From: Candidatus Woesebacteria bacterium
GTDB taxonomy: Bacteria; Patescibacteriota; Microgenomatia; UBA8517
Direction of reading: 5' to 3'
DNA length: 24,000 nucleotides
Assembly (NCBI GenBank): GCA_016432525.1
Contig: CP066693.1
Coordinates: forward strand, 689,773 to 713,772
Shown: positions 3,493 through 13,661 of the stretch, piece after piece
Position numbering within the stretch: position 1 is the stretch's first letter
Layout of the letters: each line of letters opens with the position of its first letter
Notes under the pieces: model-generated
What the model was told of the DNA's origin: nothing
What the model saw: only the letters and a program-made list of their open reading frames with translations
Databases searched by the model: none
Made by a program: the position numbers and the translations under genes

Positions 3493-3502
3493 AAAGGCCT
3501 AG

Positions 3503-3574
3503 TGCACCCAGAAGGAATCGAACCCTCATTCCTTGTTCCGAAGACAAGTGCTCTATCCGTTGAGCTATGGGTGC
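3503..3574 (-). tRNA. tRNA-Arg (anticodon UCG)
   Basis: Acceptor GCACCCA/TGGGTGC, anticodon loop CT-TCG-GA, T-arm GAGGG-TTCGATT-CCTTC. Minus-strand TGATATAAT box at 3587..3595 upstream. Confidence 0.9.
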
Positions 3575-5442: not shown

Positions 5443-5683
5443 TCATTCTTGAATCAGCTTCTTAAACTCATTTCCCTTTTGTAAGATTTTATTTCTAATT
5501 CTCTGTCAACCGCCTGGTTTCTAAAATCAAATTTTCACTATAAACAATTTCGTAAGGACCTTTATTCCTAGTATATTTACTTCCTCCTTTATTGTGTCTC
5601 AATAATCTTTTTTCTAAATTGCAAGTTGAACCAATATAATGTTTTCCAGTAGTAAGACTTCGAAGAATATATACGTAATACAC
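5443..5683 (-). pseudogene. GIY-YIG nuclease family gene (UPF0213-like), apparently frameshifted twice
   Basis: VYYVYILRSLTTGKHYIGSTCNLEKRLLRHN is the GIY-YIG core. After ...IVYSENLILET the expected C-terminus is found in the other two frames (QAVDRELEIKSYK, then GNEFKKLIQE-stop). The track ORF's N-terminal extension overlaps tRNA-Gly. Confidence 0.6.
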
Positions 5684-5687
5684 CTTG

Positions 5688-5759
5688 AGCGGCGGACCGG
5701 GTTTGAACCGGCGACCTCTTCCTTGGCAAGGAAGCATTCTACCACTGAACTACCGCCGC
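5688..5759 (-). tRNA. tRNA-Gly (anticodon GCC)
   Basis: Acceptor GCGGCGG/CCGCCGC, anticodon loop TT-GCC-AA, T-arm GCCGG-TTCAAAC-CCGGT. Confidence 0.9.
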
Positions 5760-5876: not shown

Positions 5877-5940
5877 AAAATTCTGACTTTGGCAAGACGA
5901 GCTATGCTCATCTTGGCTCAATGCAATTATACCAAACTTG

Positions 5941-6012
5941 TGGACGCTGAGGGATTCGAACCCCCGACTTTTTCGATGTAAACGAAACACTCTACCGCTG
6001 AGTTAAGCGTCC
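5941..6012 (-). tRNA. tRNA-Val (anticodon UAC)
   Basis: Acceptor GGACGCT/AGCGTCC, anticodon loop TT-TAC-AT, T-arm with TTCGAAT loop. Confidence 0.9.
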
Positions 6013-6050
6013 AAAGCGACGCTTGGCTCCCTTCGGGTAGTAAGCGTCCT

Positions 6051-6148
6051 CTGTGCTCTACATATTATACCATTCGAACTTACTTTCAGTCTCAATGCGG
6101 AGTGGCGGCTTGAACGCCACCAAGCCGCCACGTTATTTCTACCACTCG
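6051..6148 (+). repeat. left junction: core + arm Y (98 bp), perfect inverted copy at 11749..11846
   Basis: 98/98 identity to the reverse complement of 11749..11846, checked base by base. Contains a minus-strand TGGTATAAT box (6064..6072) and an 11-bp-stem hairpin (6102..6131). Confidence 0.95.
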
Positions 6149-6510
6149 GCGCTCATCGCCTCGTGGGTAAGATTCTCTTTTGCGCGCGTACAGTCGCTTT
6201 GCGACTGATTTATAAATTTACCCCTTACAAGGAAAGTGCGGGGTTGCCTAAAGCAACTGCCTTGCAGAACAAGCGGCAAAGAAATGCCTCAAAGTTTTGC
6301 TTCGCAAAAGTACCAAGCTAACGCAAGGCACAGAAGTTCCCCGCCAGTTTGGCGGGGAAGAGGCTAAGTTCCTGCTTCCAGCAGGAAGCCGCTTTCATCC
6401 GCCTTCGGCGGTTGCGCTCCTGCGAGGAAATTGACTACGCAATTTAGTGCGGCTCGCGCCGCACTCAAACAGAACCACACCGTAAAACTAAACCCGTGCA
6501 GATGCCGTGC
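6149..6510. other. ORF-free GC-rich region with at least 7 perfect short stem-loops (candidate structured RNA or protein-binding/origin region)
   Basis: Hairpins at 6191..6207, 6243..6257, 6295..6309, 6337..6359 (9 bp), 6369..6387, 6399..6411 and 6446..6465 (8 bp). No ORF of 60 aa or more on any frame. Strand undetermined. Confidence 0.4.
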
Positions 6511-6512
6511 TT

Positions 6513-6541
6513 TTGCCTCAAGTTAATGATATAAATATATA
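6513..6541 (+). promoter_or_regulatory. candidate sigma70-type promoter TTGCCT-N17-TATATA for the Fic-ART operon
   Basis: Hexamers and spacing read directly. Located 38 nt upstream of the 47-aa ORF. Confidence 0.35.
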
Positions 6542-6578
6542 TGAACCTAATTGTTCGGTAACTCTTATTTAATTAACC

Positions 6579-6722
6579 ATGCACGATATCCCTGAAAAAC
6601 AAGCAAAGAAAGATTTAGAATTGATGCTCCAAAATTTAAAAATTACTGAAGAGAAGATGCAAAGGTCGCTGCCTACAAACAAAGAGCAAAAGAAACGACC
6701 GATTATCCCAAAAACAAACTAA
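6579..6722 (+). CDS. possible 47-aa basic/charged ORF immediately upstream of the Fic-ART gene
   Basis: ATG..TAA with the stop 3 nt before the Fic-ART ATG (possible coupling). No SD. Lacks the FicA antitoxin motif (S/T)xxxE(G/N). Confidence 0.3.
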   Translation: MHDIPEKQAKKDLELMLQNLKITEEKMQRSLPTNKEQKKRPIIPKTN

Positions 6723-6725
6723 ACC

Positions 6726-9137
6726 ATGGAAGACAACATCGCAGGATCCGAGACACTTACAGCAGAGCGAATTTTGAACGATGAAGAAACAGAAAACAGG
6801 CGTACGCTCTTAACAATTATTTCCTCTCAAAGAGAAGCTATTACCTCCCGCCTTTCATCTTTTCAAGAACGAGTGGTACTATCCTTAAATGATGAAAAGG
6901 CTTTAAGACACGAGTGCCGAGAATTAGAGCAACAACTTGGGATTGAGACAGAGGAACAACGCATACTTGAAGCAAGTCTGTTTATAGACATGCCCTTTTT
7001 GGAAGTATCTGCTTTGAGGAAAGACAAACACCCAGAAGAGCTGTTTGGGATTGAAGCGTGGAAGGGCTGGTTGTCTGCCAGAATTACGGCACGACAAATG
7101 GACGAGCTTTCAGTTGAGGGAATTGTTGAGCTACATACAAAATTAGCAGAAGGGATGGATATTACGGGCGGACAACTTAGAAGTAAAAGTGCAATTGGAG
7201 CAGATTACACAAATACTGGTTCTCCTATTACTTTTACAAAGAGCCAAGCCACAGCAACTGAACAAAATCCACTTTTAGGCGTTCGCTATACCGATGAAGA
7301 AAAAAAAGAGGGTTTTATTGTATATCCCACAATTGATGACCCGAAAAGTTTTGAGAAGGTGATGAGTCAATTAACCTCACTTCAGCGAACAGGTTTACGG
7401 TATGGCGCAACAAATGAAAAACTTGTAAATGTGCTACTTCAAAGCACTATTGAGTGGCACAAGGAACAAAACAATAATTTAGCGGAGGGAGATTCAAATG
7501 CCCAAACTGAACTTGCCGCAGAGCTACAACGAAGAATAGTTTCCATACACGCATTTGATGATGGCAACGGCAGATTATCAAGGCTTCTTATGATTAGAGA
7601 GCTTGAAAAACACAATGAACCACCAACCATTTTAAGGCGTGGAGAAGATGATTTATTTTTTACTCCACAAGAATGGGTGCAGGAAGTGCGAGAAGGGCAA
7701 TCAAGGTACGAACAAATGCAAGAACGAATGACAGGTTCTCGGTACGCAAAAGCCGAGGACTTTTTAGTTGGCTTACAAAAACAAGCATATTTTGACACTG
7801 TGTACCAATCTGTTTATCCACCTCCCACTTCTGATGCACCCATGAGGCACACTGAATATCGAGCTTATCTAGAGCAACTTAACGAAATATATTCGCACTT
7901 TGCAGAATACACAGAAGGGAAAACTTGGTTACGTTGGAATAACACACAAGAAATACACATGGGAGGGCTTGTTTCTCCTGATTATTCTCGAGTATGGTGC
8001 GATACTCGACCAGAAGTGCAACAGAGGTCAAGAGAACGATATTTTGACCAAGAACTCAAAGTTTTTCGAGGTGGAGCTTGTGAAGGAATAACTGACACAA
8101 AACAACTTTTATCTGTTTTTACAGAGCCAACCGGTTTCTGCGCAGGTTACCACGCTCTTTTGGAAGAAGGAGTTTCTCCAATTAGTCTTAATTCGTTACC
8201 AATTGAGCGAATACAAAGTGAACTTAACGCGTACAATACAACAGTTCTTCGTGATACTGAGGTTAACCAAGGAGAGACTCTTGTTTCAGATGAGGTTTTA
8301 AATCAAGCAATGATAAGGGAGAGTCAGGATCAGCAAATTGCGAGAAGACTGAAATTCACATCAGAAGATGAAGAAAGAAGAGCTAGTGAATTTGCAAGTG
8401 GGGGACATATGCTTTACTTATTAAAAGTGCATACAGAGGGAAAAGCTCCTGGGTTGTGGCTTTCACCTGGAGTGAGCACCTCAATAGATGAAACCGAAGC
8501 TAGAAAATTCCTTACTACTCTAAAAGACGCCGGAGCTGAAAAACGAGTTGCATTGTTTATCTCAAGTAAATTGCCCAAACAAGGTATTTTTTACTCTCCA
8601 TCTAATCGGAGTCTGCCAATTACACGAGATTTTTACCCCAATATACCGTATCAAACAATAGTTGATGAGCAAGAAGTTGTGATAATGGGTGGAATTGACA
8701 GAAGTAGCTTACAAGCAATCGCCCATCGAAATGAAAATAATCATATAGTTTTAGTTGATTTTTCTACCAAAGAAAAAAGTATTTATAGATTTAATAAAAA
8801 AGGTGAATTAAGACTCCTTAAAAATAGAGCTTTAACAGAAGATGAGATTTCTGTTTTGAAAAAGACAAACAGACAATTGGGATCAGATAGCTATGATAAC
8901 AACAATAATTACGAAGATGAGGAGAACGAACCAAGTACGACTTATGACGATGAGCCGATTGACGATAATGAAGCGGAAGAGAAATTCCTACCGGCTTATT
9001 TGTCGGCCTCAACATTAGCAAAACTACATGACTCGCACTTATTTGATGAGGATGATGATGAAGACGAAAGTGTTTATTTAGGCTCTAGTACTCTTGCTAA
9101 TCTGAAGCAGAATCTGCAAATTGTTAATAAAGAATGA
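6726..9137 (+). CDS. two-domain Fic (AMPylase-type Fido) + R-S-E ADP-ribosyltransferase protein with acidic repeat tail (803 aa)
   Basis: Fic motif HAFDDGNGRLSR at codons 275-286 (7548..7583). Candidate auto-inhibitory TKLAEG at codons 138-143. ART triad: VFRGG (R448, 8067), GVSTSIDETEARKF (S584-T-S, 8475), DEQEVVIMGG (E648-x-E650, 8667), plus a KLPKQGIFYS strand resembling VIP2/C3-type toxins. Confidence 0.75.
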   Translation: MEDNIAGSETLTAERILNDEETENRRTLLTIISSQREAITSRLSSFQERVVLSLNDEKALRHECRELEQQLGIETEEQRILEASLFIDMPFLEVSALRKDKHPEELFGIEAWKGWLSARITARQMDELSVEGIVELHTKLAEGMDITGGQLRSKSAIGADYTNTGSPITFTKSQATATEQNPLLGVRYTDEEKKEGFIVYPTIDDPKSFEKVMSQLTSLQRTGLRYGATNEKLVNVLLQSTIEWHKEQNNNLAEGDSNAQTELAAELQRRIVSIHAFDDGNGRLSRLLMIRELEKHNEPPTILRRGEDDLFFTPQEWVQEVREGQSRYEQMQERMTGSRYAKAEDFLVGLQKQAYFDTVYQSVYPPPTSDAPMRHTEYRAYLEQLNEIYSHFAEYTEGKTWLRWNNTQEIHMGGLVSPDYSRVWCDTRPEVQQRSRERYFDQELKVFRGGACEGITDTKQLLSVFTEPTGFCAGYHALLEEGVSPISLNSLPIERIQSELNAYNTTVLRDTEVNQGETLVSDEVLNQAMIRESQDQQIARRLKFTSEDEERRASEFASGGHMLYLLKVHTEGKAPGLWLSPGVSTSIDETEARKFLTTLKDAGAEKRVALFISSKLPKQGIFYSPSNRSLPITRDFYPNIPYQTIVDEQEVVIMGGIDRSSLQAIAHRNENNHIVLVDFSTKEKSIYRFNKKGELRLLKNRALTEDEISVLKKTNRQLGSDSYDNNNNYEDEENEPSTTYDDEPIDDNEAEEKFLPAYLSASTLAKLHDSHLFDEDDDEDESVYLGSSTLANLKQNLQIVNKE

Positions 9138-9155
9138 AATTTTTTAGTAAAATAA

Positions 9156-9202
9156 AACCCTCTGTTTGTGTCGATATAAAATCGTTCACTACTAAGAGGG
9201 TT
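9156..9202 (-). terminator. hairpin (aaccctct / agagggtt, 31-nt loop) between the convergent Fic-ART and 64-aa genes
   Basis: 8-bp stem. On the minus strand it is followed by the T-rich ttattttact. The loop is long, so this is weak as an intrinsic terminator. Confidence 0.3.
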
Positions 9203-9208
9203 ACGTCC

Positions 9209-9403
9209 TTAAGGAAGTGGTTTGGCTAGACCTTCGTGCTCTCGACGCATTGCCAAATTGTATTCTGCTTGCTCTTCGTGGGTGAGCTGTTCACTACGTT
9301 CTCGCTTCCCGCGAGTAAATCGAACAAAAATATCATGGTGGGTTTGACGGGTTTTTCTGACGAACTCAAGCCACTCTTCAGCAGTCTCCGGCTCTGTATT
9401 CAT
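9209..9403 (-). CDS. hypothetical small charged protein (64 aa); candidate regulator or recombination directionality factor (speculative)
   Basis: Good SD (aaggag, 8-nt spacing). Minus-strand TGATATACT box at 9441..9449. No domain recognised. Confidence 0.55.
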   Translation of the reverse strand: MNTEPETAEEWLEFVRKTRQTHHDIFVRFTRGKRERSEQLTHEEQAEYNLAMRREHEGLAKPLP

Positions 9404-9620
9404 GATAGTAACTCCTTGTTAGTGTTGGACGACTAAAAGAAGTATATCAAATTGAGGCAATAAACAAGTTTGTTTTTACGAAATAAAAATCCCCCCAGTG
9501 ATATTTGATTGTCCGTAGACGTACAAACCCTTGGAGGGATATAGAAGACAAGAGCAAGTGTGATACCGAGAAAGGCATCAATGTAAAACTGATTAACTCA
9601 GCTCACACTTGCAAAAAGAC

Positions 9621-10664
9621 CTAGTCGTCGTTCTCGTCAAACAGATGAGCATCGCGCAGCTTCTTCAGCGTGCTGGCTCCGAGGAGTGACTCGTCATCGT
9701 CTTCTTCCTTGAAAAGAAGCTCTCCCAGCTTACGCATAGGCGTGTAGCCATCAGGCTGCAAGTCCTCTGGTGAGAGGGCATACCAAGCACTTTCTTTCCC
9801 GTCAGAACGGAACGTCTTGTGCTCAGTGCCGAGACCAAAGGCTTTGTAAATCGCGGCCTTAATTGACTCAGGCAGGTTGACGTTGGAACGCCAATTCTTT
9901 TTTGCCCAAGCGAGAGCCTGCTCAGCCGTCCAGACGACGTCTTCTTCGTTCAGCCCACGATTGTAAATCGGGGTTGGACTTTGCATTCCTGCTGCACGTT
10001 CCCACGTAAAACGGGCGCCACCAGCATGGAAGCAAAAGCTAATGTTGAGACTCGTAGGAACTGAACCTTCTGCCCGATACCGCAGATTGCTGGCAATGAT
10101 TGCCGCACTCTCAGGCGAACGAGCAAAGTTATGCCCAGAGTATTCGTCCGTGCATAAAGCAGACCCGCGCGGGAAACTGTGCCAACGCTTGGCGTAGGCA
10201 ATAATCTCCACATGGGGATGCTGTTCCGCAATGCGAGTACCGATAGCCGCGAGCCAGTTCATGAACTCATGGTTCATGTCTGTACCCTCAACAACGACAC
10301 TAACAATGCGCCACTGGTCCCAATCTGTAAGGGACGCAAAAAACTCAACCACTTCGGCTGGTGTAAGCTTGACGTTTGTACTCATTTTGATTCTCACTTT
10401 CATGGATAGTCCCTTATCCAGAGCTTTCAGCTCAGGAACGGGAATCTTCAGGATAAAGCCACCATAGACCACCTCCAAAACTGCGAGGTGATTATCCCAA
10501 TCGTGGGGACGATTAGGTGCAAACTGCACTTGTACCTGATTAAGGTACTCACGCAAGATTTGCAAAATGGTGTCGTTCAGCTCACCAAAGTTCTTGGTAA
10601 GCCTTGCTGCCTGCTGAAGAATTTCAGCATTTTTTAGCAGCTGCCCCAAACTTTTCTTAGCCAT
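9621..10664 (-). CDS. hypothetical protein (347 aa) ending in the ESLLGASTLKKLRDAHLFDENDD motif
   Basis: Start chosen at ATG 10664, preceded by GGAGG (cagggaggaaataaaATG). The 94-codon upstream extension in the track has no signal. About 53% GC in spot counts. No domain recognised. Confidence 0.7.
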   Translation of the reverse strand: MAKKSLGQLLKNAEILQQAARLTKNFGELNDTILQILREYLNQVQVQFAPNRPHDWDNHLAVLEVVYGGFILKIPVPELKALDKGLSMKVRIKMSTNVKLTPAEVVEFFASLTDWDQWRIVSVVVEGTDMNHEFMNWLAAIGTRIAEQHPHVEIIAYAKRWHSFPRGSALCTDEYSGHNFARSPESAAIIASNLRYRAEGSVPTSLNISFCFHAGGARFTWERAAGMQSPTPIYNRGLNEEDVVWTAEQALAWAKKNWRSNVNLPESIKAAIYKAFGLGTEHKTFRSDGKESAWYALSPEDLQPDGYTPMRKLGELLFKEEDDDESLLGASTLKKLRDAHLFDENDD

Positions 10665-10897
10665 TTTATTTCCTCCCTGAGGTATAAGGCTAAAGTTGAA
10701 CGATTCAACACAAAACCCTGTTCTGTGTGAGCCACTCCATAGTGACTTTTTGCGCACCAAAACTGATGCCCAAAGTGCCACCATGGAATAAATGAGAATT
10801 TCTAGGTCTTTATTTTGAATGTGCAAATTTATACTTTCGTCTTGCCAAAAGCTAACTTTCGGAAGACTCATCAGTCCAGCTAAGCTGGAGAGTACGT

Positions 10898-10964
10898 GCA
10901 GGTGGAGTTGAGTTGAAAGGCAATGATGAAATCGTGATGATTTCAAAACTCAACTCGCACCTGC
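10898..10964 (-). other. long imperfect hairpin (17-bp arms, one bulge) 7 nt downstream of the 167-aa gene stop
   Basis: gcaggtggagttgagtt (10898..10914) pairs with aactcaactcgcacctgc (10947..10964). No U-tract, so function as a terminator is unproven. Confidence 0.3.
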
Positions 10965-10971
10965 GAAACGC

Positions 10972-11475
10972 CTATCGGTAGAGGTCAATCGGATACCGTT
11001 TGTAAAAAATCGGTGTACCGATTTTCCAGCCACCGATGTTGAAACCGGCCTCAGCCAATCTCGCTAAGGCTTCTCCCAGCAGAGACTTGTTGTCCCCGCT
11101 GATGACCATTTTAAACCCTTTGTTCCCGTATTCTTCATACGAGAGGGTTAGGTCATTCGAGACCGCCTCAACGATTGAGGTGATCTCGTTCCAGTTAGCC
11201 ATTCTGCGGCTAAGGCCTTCGTGAACCAGTCCTGGATTTTCAGCGCTCAGCGCTTCAAACCCTTTCAAGGTTAGGCCGTAAAACCAGCCAGCGCCGACTA
11301 CAGCAAATCCTTGGTCGACAAGCACGGTGGCTTGTTGCACCTTCTCAGGTGGCCACCAAGCAGGCAACGGCTTGTTTGCATCATGCAGACGATTGAGCAT
11401 ATTGCTCGACGCCTGAAACGCAACCGCCGTACCTGTGGTGCGGCCCAACAATTCTAACCCAAATTTGTTAGCCAT
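10972..11475 (-). CDS. hypothetical protein (167 aa)
   Basis: Strong SD (taaggaggattaaaATG). GC-rich codon usage like the 347-aa neighbour. No domain recognised. Confidence 0.7.
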   Translation of the reverse strand: MANKFGLELLGRTTGTAVAFQASSNMLNRLHDANKPLPAWWPPEKVQQATVLVDQGFAVVGAGWFYGLTLKGFEALSAENPGLVHEGLSRRMANWNEITSIVEAVSNDLTLSYEEYGNKGFKMVISGDNKSLLGEALARLAEAGFNIGGWKIGTPIFYKRYPIDLYR

Positions 11476-11632
11476 TTTAATCCTCCTTAAGGACTCAGGG
11501 CTGGCAGCCCGCTGATGGTCATTCTAAATGAATGCCAGTTTAGCCTCAAACTCTAATTAAAGCTAAATTAGCATCCACTAGCTTTATTAGGTCTTTGTTT
11601 AAATGTGCAGATAGAAGGTAATTTATGGTGCT

Positions 11633-11661
11633 ATAGTAGCATGAATGAAGCTAAAAGTCAA
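11633..11661 (-). promoter_or_regulatory. sigma70-type promoter TTGACT-N17-TACTAT for the 167-aa gene, leaving a ~150-nt leader
   Basis: Hexamers and 17-nt spacer read directly on the minus strand. Confidence 0.5.
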
Positions 11662-11748
11662 GAACTATAGGGAATATGACGAATAATTTTTGCTTTTTTC
11701 TTTTTAGGGAACGAGCCAACTTTTTTGACCCACTTCAGCGCTTCGCGT

Positions 11749-11934
11749 CGAGTGGTAGAAATAACGTGGCGGCTTGGTGGCGTTCAAGCCGCCACTCCGC
11801 ATTGAGACTGAAAGTAAGTTCGAATGGTATAATATGTAGAGCACAGCAAGGGAGCCGAGGGCTCATCGCAGGCTGCGATTGGCCGCGCAGCCAGCGAAAT
11901 ATGTGGATTGTTTGGGGAAAAGTGGATACGTTTA
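11749..11934 (-). repeat. internal inverted copy of the predicted excision junction (arm X + core + arm Y), 186 bp
   Basis: 11749..11846 is the exact reverse complement of 6051..6148 (98/98). 11841..11934 is the exact reverse complement of 13427..13520 (94/94). The two share the core gcacag at 11841..11846. Confidence 0.95.
11825..11833 (+). promoter_or_regulatory. TGGTATAAT extended -10 box within the inverted Y arm, oriented toward the recombinase gene
   Basis: Same box as 6064..6072 (there on the minus strand, facing tRNA-Val). Matches the host tRNA promoter style TATAATATG. Confidence 0.45.
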
Positions 11935-11996
11935 GGATAAGGATAGAAAAAAGAAAATCGCAAAAATTATATGTTTCAGAAATGTTATTCTGAAAC

Positions 11997-13661
11997 ATGA
12001 GCAAAACTTCAGTTGCTTCTGTAATAAAGCCTAAATACCTCGGTTATTGTCGCAAGTCCACAGACGAGAAAGAAAAACAGATTTTGTCTATAGATCAGCA
12101 GATTGATGAGTTAAAAACTTTCGCTTCAAGGGAAAATCTAGAAATAGTAGAGTTCTTTGTTGAAAAAAAGACTGCTAAAGAACCTGGTCGCTCAGTTTTT
12201 AACAATCTGCTGAAATTGGTAGAAAAAGGATTGGCAGATGGAATTGTTGCATGGCACCCTGATCGATTAGCCCGAAACAGTGTGGATGGTGGAAAGATTA
12301 TCTACCTTTTGGATACAGGCCAACTTCAAGATTTGAAGTTCCCAACTTTCTGGTTTCAAAACACACCTCAAGGCAAGTTCATGCTAAACATCGCGTTTGG
12401 CCAGAGCAAATATTATGTAGATAATCTTTCAGAAAATGTAAAGCGTGGATTGCATTTCAAAGCCAGACGTGGAGAGTGGCCTTCCTTTGCCCCCTTCGGC
12501 TATAAAAATGACCGTAATACAAGAAATATTGTTGTCGTGCCACAGCAAACAGAACTTGTTAAATATGTATTTACTCATTTCGCCTCAGGGGAACTATCTT
12601 CAACACGAGATGTCAGAAGTTACCTTTTTAAGAAGGGTGTAAAGCGAAAAAATGGAAGGCCACTTCACTACAATCAAATTCGTGCAATTCTTACTCGCAG
12701 TTTATATTACGGTGTCTTTATATATGGTGGTGAAACTTACGAAAGTAAACTTCCACCTTTAATATCCCAAGAGCTGTTTGACAAGGTTCAGGTGCGTCTA
12801 AAGAGACTTCAGCCAACTAATCTCAAAAAGCACGAATTTAATTTCACAGGGCTTATGAAATGCATAGAATGTGGAAGTTTTATTACGGCTGAGAGTCACA
12901 CCAAGCATTACAAATGTGCAAAACGAACCGCAGTTTATATTTATTATCGTTGTGTGAAGAAAAAAGGTGTTTGCTCTCAGCCTTATGTAACAGAAGCTGA
13001 AGTTGAAACTCAGTTGAGAGAAATTGTGAAAAAGTGCTCGCTTTCACCAATATGGGAAAAAGGTTTTATGGAGCTTCTTCTAAAAGATGAATTGGAAGCA
13101 AGAGCTCGCACTTCAGTTGAGCTTTGCTCAATCACAACTTCTCTTGAAGCAGTTGAAAAGAAACTTAGCCGTCTGTTAGAACTATACCTTGAAGAAAGTA
13201 TTGAAGCTGAGGATTATCAGTTAAAGAAAAATCAACTGCTTCACAAGAAACTTGATTTAAAATCCCAGATTGAGAGGGTAAAAGCTGACGGAGTAAGTTG
13301 GCTCGAACCTTTGAGGAACTTTATTATTGAGTCCGCAAATGCGGACAAAATCGCGCGCGCAAAAGAGAATCGCAGTGATTTGGCAATCACTGCCAAAAAA
13401 GTCGGCTCGAACTACTTGCTATTTGATAAACGTATCCACTTTTCCCCAAACAATCCACATATTTCGCTGGCTGCGCGGCCAATCGCAGCCTGCGATGAGC
13501 CCTCGGCTCCCTTGCTGTGCGGGAGACAGGACTTGAACCTGCACGGATTTCTCCATACGCACCTCAAGCGTACGTGTATACCAGTTTCACCACTCCCGCA
13601 AATCTCAAAGTGCCGAAGGAGAGATTTGAACTCTCACGCTCAAAAGAGCACACGCTCCTGA
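11997..13661 (+). CDS. large serine recombinase (integrase)
   Basis: N-terminal resolvase domain (YCRKS21TDEK, HPDRLARN), recombinase domain, zinc-ribbon cysteines (CIECGS...YYRCVKKKGVC) and a coiled-coil region. The last 47 codon positions (46 sense codons plus stop) read through the right junction into antisense tRNA-Leu genes. Confidence 0.9.
   Translation: MSKTSVASVIKPKYLGYCRKSTDEKEKQILSIDQQIDELKTFASRENLEIVEFFVEKKTAKEPGRSVFNNLLKLVEKGLADGIVAWHPDRLARNSVDGGKIIYLLDTGQLQDLKFPTFWFQNTPQGKFMLNIAFGQSKYYVDNLSENVKRGLHFKARRGEWPSFAPFGYKNDRNTRNIVVVPQQTELVKYVFTHFASGELSSTRDVRSYLFKKGVKRKNGRPLHYNQIRAILTRSLYYGVFIYGGETYESKLPPLISQELFDKVQVRLKRLQPTNLKKHEFNFTGLMKCIECGSFITAESHTKHYKCAKRTAVYIYYRCVKKKGVCSQPYVTEAEVETQLREIVKKCSLSPIWEKGFMELLLKDELEARARTSVELCSITTSLEAVEKKLSRLLELYLEESIEAEDYQLKKNQLLHKKLDLKSQIERVKADGVSWLEPLRNFIIESANADKIARAKENRSDLAITAKKVGSNYLLFDKRIHFSPNNPHISLAARPIAACDEPSAPLLCGRQDLNLHGFLHTHLKRTCIPVSPLPQISKCRRRDLNSHAQKSTRS
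13427..13520 (+). repeat. right junction: arm X + core (94 bp), perfect inverted copy at 11841..11934
   Basis: 94/94 identity, checked base by base. Overlaps recombinase codons 478-508. Confidence 0.95.
13518..13599 (-). tRNA. tRNA-Leu (anticodon GAG), type II; integration target
   Basis: Acceptor GCGGGAG/CTCCCGC, anticodon loop TT-GAG-GT, T-arm CAGG-TTCAAGT-CCTG, 82 nt. Confidence 0.9.

Follow-up and report, generated by a model that had tools for sequence, protein, structure and literature searches.

The stretch of DNA analysed here, referred to as the window, comprises 24 kb of a Candidatus Woesebacteria genome, a member of the candidate phyla radiation (CPR), in which a tRNA cluster is interrupted by an island encoding a large serine recombinase (LSR), in the order Leu-Leu / island / Val-Phe-Gly. 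The left end of the island lies 39 nt from tRNA-Val(tac), and its right-hand core, the six bases shared by both ends, overlaps the 3' end of tRNA-Leu(gag). The G+C content of parts of the island is above the host background of ~37%, and an Rfam search of the window returned nothing besides tRNAs. The subject of this report is a third copy of that core, which lies inside the island directly upstream of the recombinase gene (int) and is flanked, in inverted orientation, by both terminal arms of the island. We denote these arms X and Y, the host sequences on either side Z and W, and the left and right attachment junctions attL and attR; the parts, from left to right, are as follows.

5940..6012, minus strand: tRNA-Val(tac), host gene to the left of the island and the next one in the tRNA cluster, downstream of the insertion point (ARAGORN and Rfam).
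6013..6050, no strand assigned: Z, the host-side left flank and B arm of attL, unconserved among related loci (site alignment, 27 loci).
6051..6056, plus strand: core ctgtgc, attL copy (three-way identity).
6057..6148, plus strand: arm Y, left copy, P' arm of attL (inverted repeat), with TTCGAAC at 6073-6079 and a terminator-like hairpin at 6102-6131.
6149..11748, no strand assigned: cargo (ORF calls, Pfam, PADLOC).
11749..11840, minus strand: arm Y, internal inverted copy (repeat), with a minus-strand TTCGAAC at 11818-11824 and the mirror image of the hairpin at 11766-11795.
11841..11846, minus strand: core gcacag of the internal site, which is ctgtgc in reverse complement (repeat comparison).
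11847..11934, minus strand: arm X, inverted internal copy, reading as the reverse complement of the final ~29 codons ahead of the core in the recombinase open reading frame (ORF).
11935..11996, plus strand: 62-nt recombinase leader, with a palindrome gtttcagaa...ttctgaaac that overlaps the ATG (sequence and scan).
11997..13661, plus strand: LSR ORF, 554 aa as read (Pfam, alignment of homologues).
13427..13514, plus strand: arm X, right copy, P arm of attR, within the 3' end of the recombinase ORF.
13515..13520, plus strand: core ctgtgc, attR copy, overlapping the final 4 nt of tRNA-Leu(gag).
13517..13599, minus strand: tRNA-Leu(gag), the target gene, which constitutes W and the B' arm (ARAGORN and Rfam), with the T-loop motif CTTGAAC at 13532-13538, 11 nt from the core.

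A repeat search of the window returned two inverted pairs and no further long repeat in the whole 24 kb. The first pair joins 6051-6159 to 11738-11846 (109 nt, 96% identity) and is perfect across 6051-6148 and 11749-11846 (98 nt), with the final 11 nt matching at 7 of 11 positions; the second joins 11841-11934 to 13427-13520 (94 nt, 100%). Perfect matches of 94 and 98 nt are far beyond chance. The two pairs overlap at 11841-11846 (gcacag), the reverse complement of the ctgtgc at 6051-6056 and 13515-13520. Because they overlap exactly in the core, 11749..11934 is, base for base, the reverse complement of X (13427..13514), ctgtgc and Y (6057..6148) joined together, as a preliminary description of this stretch had stated. 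Its accompanying claims, that the 94-bp perfect repeats bracket the recombinase gene, that the 98-bp perfect repeats bracket the cargo and that three sites share the core with their arms permuted as Z/Y, reverse complement of X/Y, and X/W, were likewise borne out. The integrated order is attL (Z/core/Y), cargo, the reverse complement of X/core/Y, int and attR (X/core/W). Unlike the ends of a terminal-inverted-repeat transposon, the outer ends of the island (core plus Y on the left, X plus core on the right) do not form an inverted repeat pair, and the flanking 6-mers belong to the exchange core instead of having been duplicated on insertion.

The ORF at 11997..13661 contains the Pfam domains Resolvase (PF00239, 2.5e-22), Recombinase (PF07508, 6.8e-13) and Zn_ribbon_recom (PF13408, 4.2e-08), and an alignment of close homologues shows almost no variation in the motif YCRKST, which includes S21; these three domains and the catalytic serine motif support the earlier assignment of the island to an LSR. 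The closest public protein comes from a Candidatus Woesebacteria metagenome-assembled genome (MAG). An exact-protein lookup with the full 554-aa ORF gave no match, and the public copy is a 526-aa partial protein because the NCBI contig stops inside tRNA-Leu. Homologues are numerous, with 7,833 scored matches in the protein search. In the window, the recombinase ORF has no stop before the core and continues into the antisense strand of tRNA-Leu, and it crosses the core in 122 of 124 related loci, where all three frames relative to the tRNA occur. As no stop precedes the crossover core, the C-terminal tail of the recombinase would vary with the integration state, being read from antisense tRNA in the integrated element and from arm Y otherwise. 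A conserved C-terminal peptide read from the tRNA was considered as a built-in directionality signal and rejected, because all three frames are used across subfamilies.

Related loci were fetched via the alignment of close homologues, 80 from GTDB genomes and 80 from JGI metagenomes, and each was compared with itself (individual loci carry L numbers below). The X inverted repeat, with its right arm covering the 3' end of the gene, was found at 132 of the 166 recombinase genes examined, and 21 of the 34 genes without it are cut by a contig end. A uniform absence of the internal copy from homologues, named in the preliminary description as a ground for rejecting the finding, is thereby contradicted. 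The internal copy is thus present in ~90% of the untruncated genes, in recombinases that are only 40-60% identical and in many host lineages. The second inverted pair, Y, abuts the first in 63 of the 100 loci with more than 600 nt of upstream sequence, and in these 63 loci the core common to both pairs measures 2-21 nt, usually 4-9. The right arm overlaps the 3' end of a minus-strand tRNA in 88 cases, usually by 3-9 nt, and at least 15 tRNA types are targeted. The internal site lies 24-130 nt upstream of int in most loci. The set includes the complete genomes L002 and L073 and the chromosome-level MAG assembly L008; L008 has both repeat pairs and L073 the X pair at 98-99% identity, and L002 has only a 44-nt X pair at 93%. 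It is therefore almost certain that the internal inverted copy is real and conserved across the family, which appears to comprise a very large and undescribed group of LSR elements, mostly in CPR/Patescibacteria, at the extreme 3' ends of tRNA genes. A phage origin was rejected, as only 4 relatives were found in IMG/VR.

The orientation of the modules is as constant as their presence. Among the 166 assembled recombinase genes none has the opposite orientation, int always reading into the tRNA; three apparent cases of cargo downstream of int (L002, L010 and L037) proved to be only inverted tRNA-Leu paralogues. Two of the meanings proposed in the preliminary description, a two-attP circle that integrates in either orientation and a free inversion of recombinase or cargo, were accordingly not seen among these genes. 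A decoy or regulatory site, and a switch, are still candidates.

The arms have a median length of 95 nt on each side of the core, with identity of ~98% inside and ~33% just outside, and they vary in length from one subfamily to another (X, 44-178 nt; Y, 29-370 nt). Perfect pairs make up 75 of 133 for X and 41 of 64 for Y; the mean divergence is 1-2%, with mismatches evenly spread and no gradient from the core. Treated like the clock provided by long terminal repeats, the X and Y divergences are uncorrelated within loci (Spearman -0.08). The perfect identity of both arms in the window had been taken to indicate recent duplication, gene conversion or selection; recent duplication did not hold up, since the arm pairs are 1-2% diverged on average with many perfect, whereas a maintained feature of the whole family stands. 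These same data could be read as a functionless relic, in which an ancestral inverted duplication of the attachment site is harmless and has been kept identical by gene conversion: the divergence is low, uniform and uncorrelated between X and Y, and at ~95 nt the arms suffice for homologous recombination. However, the copy persists in ~90% of the untruncated genes despite the distance between their recombinases and the range of their hosts, sharp arm ends and subfamily-specific arm lengths are hard to fit with one old decaying duplication, and crossovers between the arms should flip the modules too, of which no case was seen. We therefore regard a mere relic as improbable.

Another suggestion of the preliminary description, an assembly artefact that mixes integrated and excised forms, has some grounds in the public records. 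The NCBI contig of the same organism (JACOTY010000007.1; L001/L089) differs exactly at the internal site, lacking 11839..11918 (80 nt) as well as 6313..6386 (74 nt), and ends at 13575, 55 nt past attR; the scaffold of a relative, L083, has a 10-N gap at its internal site (L083:3875-3884); and the contigs of many relatives break at these repeats. An independent check of the same organism was provided by the Logan unitigs of run SRR12113415, a raw-read assembly. One unitig matches window 6119..11778 at 100% and at either end breaks off exactly 30 nt (k-1) into a Y arm, the two arms being in inverted orientation; a second begins at 13491, 30 nt inside X plus core. Genuine Y and X repeats, with two continuations (W and Y) of X plus core, would produce such breaks, which lend independent support to the structure; as both ends of the cargo run into inverted Y, a simple mixture of integrated and excised forms cannot explain it. 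In addition, the same layout occurs in more than 130 loci from varied assemblers and samples, including the complete genomes and the chromosome-level assembly, and some repeat pairs differ by a few bases and so must be separate physical copies. The artefact option is hence excluded for practical purposes, its residual probability being minute. The 74- and 80-nt differences of the NCBI contig were also considered as natural deletions and rejected; they are probably collapsed scaffold gaps, given that the Logan unitig does contain 6313..6386 and that two other assemblies of the element with the N-gap in L083 are complete. Public copies of such elements may often be wrong exactly at hairpin-rich and repeat-rich spots.

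The nature of the three sites was examined in a core-anchored alignment of 27 loci. In this alignment Z is unconserved, W is the acceptor and T arm of the tRNA, Y bears a conserved TTCGAAC...ATTTC, and X bears a GC-rich hairpin within the last ~30 codons of int. The TTCGAAC of Y lies farther from the core than the T-loop motif of W, by 5 positions in 13 loci, by 4 in 13 and by 3 in 1; this offset holds for the right half-sites only, X and Z having no such motif. In characterized LSR systems, the distance of the DBD2 motif from the centre is shorter by 5 bp (4 bp in SPbeta) in attB than in attP half-sites (PMC11722253). The offset between Y and W equals this published one, which argues that X/core/Y is a bona fide attP and that the internal site is a complete inverted attP. 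Judged from these alignments, then, X/core/Y is the attP, Z/core/W is the attB, and Y is a true attP-type half-site. Serine-integrase elements have a single attP, with none left after integration, whereas here a complete inverted attP is retained. The dyad symmetry of X/core/Y is weak and is centred on the last two bases of the core.

The hairpins of the arms have features of their own. The Y hairpin (6102-6131 in the window) is terminator-like for transcripts leaving the core outward, and a T-tract follows it on the outward side in 15 of 43 loci versus 1 of 43 on the other side. The X and Y arms of many loci (for example, X of L004 and of L006, and window 6102-6131) contain GC stems of about 11-12 bp with 8-nt loops reading RGGGCGGG or CCCCCACC, depending on the strand, and these hairpins could be the binding site of a dimeric protein or a structured nucleic-acid element. 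No strand bias of UUCG or GNRA tetraloops was found in the arm hairpins, whose dominant loops are 8 nt long and G-rich or C-rich. A sigma-70 promoter in Y facing the core (TGGTATAAT at 11826-11834) was considered and rejected, as it is unconserved by eye across loci and was not called by the scanner.

Several loci record what is inserted. In L040 (869-4565), a complete block of Y, cargo, inverted Y, inverted X, int and X lies inside the recombinase gene of another element, between the codons for ...MLSI and AFGQSKYY; the target has GTCGAAA at the attB spacing, and its reconstruction leaves no duplicated target bases. About 19 of the best 120 homologues are fusion ORFs of ~720-930 aa, and the three that were read (P0002, P0004 and P0013) show a join of the L040 type. 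The whole three-site block, including the internal attP, is very probably the unit of insertion, entering through the attP-type site. If the whole unit moves together, the excised circle must carry two inverted attPs. The formation of such a circle by the fusion of two palindromic circles was considered and rejected, because many cores have no palindromic dinucleotide (for example, GTGA, TGTTG and TGGTGG). One subfamily inserts at the invariant AFGQSKYYVDN codons of the recombinase genes of other members, where the DNA GCAGTCGAAAT mimics the tRNA T-loop, and the ORF of the invading recombinase is in frame with that of its victim, giving fusion ORFs of ~900 aa; this looks like element-against-element targeting.

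Occupied tRNA genes are hit as well. Tandem arrays of the form int_a-X_a/core/Y_b stand at one tRNA in L105 (205-5408), in L122 and probably in L082 (2777-4634), the newer element abutting the tRNA and the tRNA-proximal element having the fresher repeats. These arrays imply that the attP of a newcomer recombined with an occupied site and that an occupied tRNA stays a target. At the same Leu(gag)/Val(tac) junction as in the window, L029 holds a related element with only 972 nt of different cargo.

With two attP copies identical over ~190 bp, the second one might itself be a working integration site, used in either orientation or for swapping the cargo or int arc between inverted tRNA sites in a natural form of cassette exchange. 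The cargo is indeed highly variable among elements with similar Y arms, and in L086 (756-2574) two genuine tRNA genes converge on an int module, tRNA-Leu(taa) on the plus strand, which abuts the left X arm, and tRNA-Arg(tcg) on the minus strand at the right. However, the orientation is invariant, the attP downstream of int is split in every locus, and a plus-strand tRNA at the left arm is peculiar to this locus. In L086 the CTP synthase block is inverted relative to L084, and the left flank is 68-74% identical whereas the remainder is 99.5% identical; either the chromosome was inverted here through the internal site or the contig is chimeric. Such a use of the second attP is, in our estimation, quite improbable, only slightly less so than a relic.

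The cargos of related elements are entirely different; in relatives with both repeat pairs they measure 0.5-9.4 kb, and the smallest hold only a gene for an XRE helix-turn-helix (HTH) protein or one unrelated gene. The XRE HTH family is the sole gene family that recurs in more than 3 of the 31 cargos compared. In 29 of 97 loci (for example, L004:9348-9701 and L057:9340-9627), the 1.5 kb upstream of the internal site include such a gene; it is divergent from int in 28 of these 29, and in 27 of the 28 its start is no more than ~400 nt from that site. The element in the window has no XRE HTH gene, and no directionality-factor gene is evident in the smallest elements.

The explanation that we prefer, tentatively and at somewhat below even likelihood for the whole, is that the internal copy is a selectively maintained second attP which acts as a control element or insulator; the control or insulator function of the copy, considered by itself, is distinctly less likely than that. 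Insertion would take place by attP x attB exchange inside the common core. Integration would split the working attP, and the internal copy would keep an intact recombinase-binding site beside int. The hairpin terminators of its arms would stand between int and the cargo, often a divergent XRE gene, and read-through from the host tRNA via attR would run antisense over int and be halted at the internal site, so that int would be quiet while integrated. The internal site and attR would also form a potentially invertible int cassette. An inverted duplicate would be the only arrangement safe in terms of recombination, because from a direct copy the recombinase or RecA could delete int or cargo, whereas an inverted one permits inversion only. 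The fixed orientation of both modules supports the explanation, with int directed into the tRNA and the XRE gene divergent where it is present.

Several observations weigh against it. A known LSR attP needs ~50 bp, whereas ~95 nt are kept here on each side with sharp ends and a uniform divergence of 1-2%, and a mere operator or terminator would not need such identity. The start of int is ~150 nt from the core, too distant for simple promoter occlusion; the divergent HTH gene is present in only ~30% of the elements, a T-tract follows only about a third of the Y hairpins, and promoter predictions are weak. Furthermore, the tandem arrays suggest that attP x attR exchange is possible, in which case the internal site should be an active partner and not a binding site only.

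The main rival is an invertible int cassette, in which the recombinase or RecA would flip 11935..13426 between the internal attP and attR. Flipped int would be co-directional with the host tRNA operon and hence on, and a rare, self-limiting burst of expression would trigger excision without a directionality factor. The position of int between inverted sites fits this mechanism, as does the presence of the 3' end of its ORF within the repeat, which leaves the ORF open either way. The arrays in L105, L122 and probably L082 show an attP-type site recombining with an occupied tRNA site, and the internal attP with attR would be the same pairing, inverted. In many elements a directionality-factor gene would not fit, as some cargos consist of one unrelated gene or 556 nt. 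Since the left half of attB, Z, is unconserved, site identity seems to be set by one half-site. In its full form, the inverted attP would be an active partner, one half-site (the T-loop motif at attB or attP spacing) would set the identity of a site, and the enzyme would be bidirectional without a directionality factor, with the int cassette flipping against or under the tRNA promoter. Such a loose left half-site would also explain the tandem pile-ups and the homing of one subfamily into the recombinase genes of other elements. However, no flipped isomer was found among the 166 genes, which come from many assemblers, and the orientation of the cargo is fixed too; the lack of flipped loci argues for a flipped state that is at most transient. 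Moreover, canonical LSRs do not recombine attP x attR, the tandem arrays could stem from attP x attL instead, and int seems to be equipped with a leader and promoter region of its own. We consider the flipping cassette unlikely, its triggering of excision by a burst of int equally so, and the active-partner scheme as a whole no likelier than either.

A further mechanism would use the internal copy on a single strand, where X/core/Y could pair with its inverted copy into a fold-back attP, a duplex of ~190 bp with cargo and int as loops. Complementarity is kept over the full ~190 bp with sharp ends, exceeding the footprint of the recombinase, and competence machinery is widely encoded in CPR bacteria. 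Serine recombinases, however, cut both strands of both partners; on paper, the reaction yields a hairpin-capped linear chromosome and needs extra steps, and it predicts no orientation bias. This route is very improbable, well below the cassette switch.

Compared with known systems, these elements stand nearest to the serine integrases of phages and integrative and conjugative elements (phiC31, Bxb1, A118/LI and SPbeta SprA), with which they share the three-domain enzyme, the short common core, an attP beside the integrase gene and the offset of 4-5 bp of the outer motif in attP half-sites relative to those of attB. They differ from these integrases in keeping a second complete inverted attP and a conserved site of ~190 bp versus ~50 bp, in the unconserved left half of attB, in the use of the last tRNA bases as target, in an int ORF that spans the crossover and in hitting occupied sites. 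The Hin H and Gin G invertase switches are alike in that the recombinase gene lies between inverted crossover sites, hin being located between hixL and hixR. In contrast, the recombinase here is a 554-aa LSR rather than a small serine recombinase (~190 aa) with a C-terminal HTH, the arms are ~95 nt long versus 26 bp, one bracketing site is a chromosome junction at a tRNA gene, and the alternative orientation is absent among the assembled genes. In Tn3, the res site between tnpA and tnpR doubles as an autoregulatory operator, and the likeness lies in a serine-recombinase site in the divergent region upstream of the recombinase gene (between XRE and int in 27 loci); res, however, is the working site and occurs once, whereas in the islands integration divides the working site, with the internal attP as an additional, inverted copy.

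Three other systems resemble the elements in layout. The yeast 2-micron plasmid (FLP/FRT, with inverted repeats of 599 bp) is alike in that two inverted sites would split the predicted circle into two arcs, one of them with the recombinase; FLP, however, is a tyrosine recombinase, and the plasmid replicates and is amplified by inversion, whereas the island family has no replication genes and no isomers were seen. Engineered inverted attP pairs (MiMIC, and the recombinase-mediated and dual-integrase cassette exchange systems RMCE and DICE) likewise place a segment between two inverted serine-integrase sites, but these are man-made, whereas the island pairs are of mixed type (attL/attP and attP/attR); no natural counterpart of them was found in literature searches. 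Islands of the Islander type and tycheposons share small cargos at tRNA genes and tandem accretion, but mostly use tyrosine integrases (910 of 937 tycheposons have a tyrosine recombinase), with long direct repeats of the tRNA 3' end and no internal inverted attP. The literature searches turned up no account of the layout or of the CPR family, in agreement with the earlier remark that no described LSR element is known to carry a second, inverted attP. The enzyme and the attP/attB logic are thus known from serine integrases, and the retained inverted attP is apparently an undescribed layout.

Serine integrases are prized for genome engineering because of their short sites and one-way reaction, and this family appears to depart from this picture in several respects. 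The integrated element retains a live-looking attP, the universal T-loop of tRNAs underlies one att half-site, insertion tolerates occupied sites and arbitrary left half-sites, and the integrase frame runs past the point of crossover. Should the internal site control or flip int, this would be a new way to set directionality or to silence an integrase via host tRNA transcription. The family also provides a handle on small-cassette exchange at tRNA clusters in ultra-small CPR bacteria, in which few mobile elements are known, and its elements, directed at 15 or more tRNA types, contain a very wide range of predicted attP/attB pairs.

The cargo of the island in the window begins at its left end (~6150-6500) with ~350 nt of non-coding, G+C-rich sequence (about 52%) that is crowded with short hairpins, for example ccccgccagtttggcgggg, cctgcttccagcagg, ccgccttcggcgg and gtgcggctcgcgccgcac; a comparison of this stretch with Rfam gave no meaningful match (best E 0.13). 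The genes that follow are listed below.

6726-9137, plus strand: Fic-domain protein, 803 aa, with the motif HAFDDGNGRLSR (Pfam).
9209-9403, minus strand: 64-aa ORF (ORF call).
9621-10946, minus strand: 441-aa protein with no family match (ORF call, Pfam).
10972-11475, minus strand: 167-aa ORF (ORF call).

The Fic protein and the 441-aa protein have in common an acidic C-terminal motif, L(S/G)ASTL(A/K)KL(H/R)D(S/A)HLFDE(D/N)DD, which could be a sorting or secretion tag. Two further features lie to the left of the island. A short GIY-YIG-type ORF at 5495-5737 on the minus strand (80 aa; 62 aa in the public annotation) overlaps tRNA-Gly(gcc) to the left of the host tRNA cluster, and tRNA-Arg(tcg) at 3502-3574, between the genes for CTP synthase and a GTPase, is the empty target of a 70%-identical sister element present in L083-L085.

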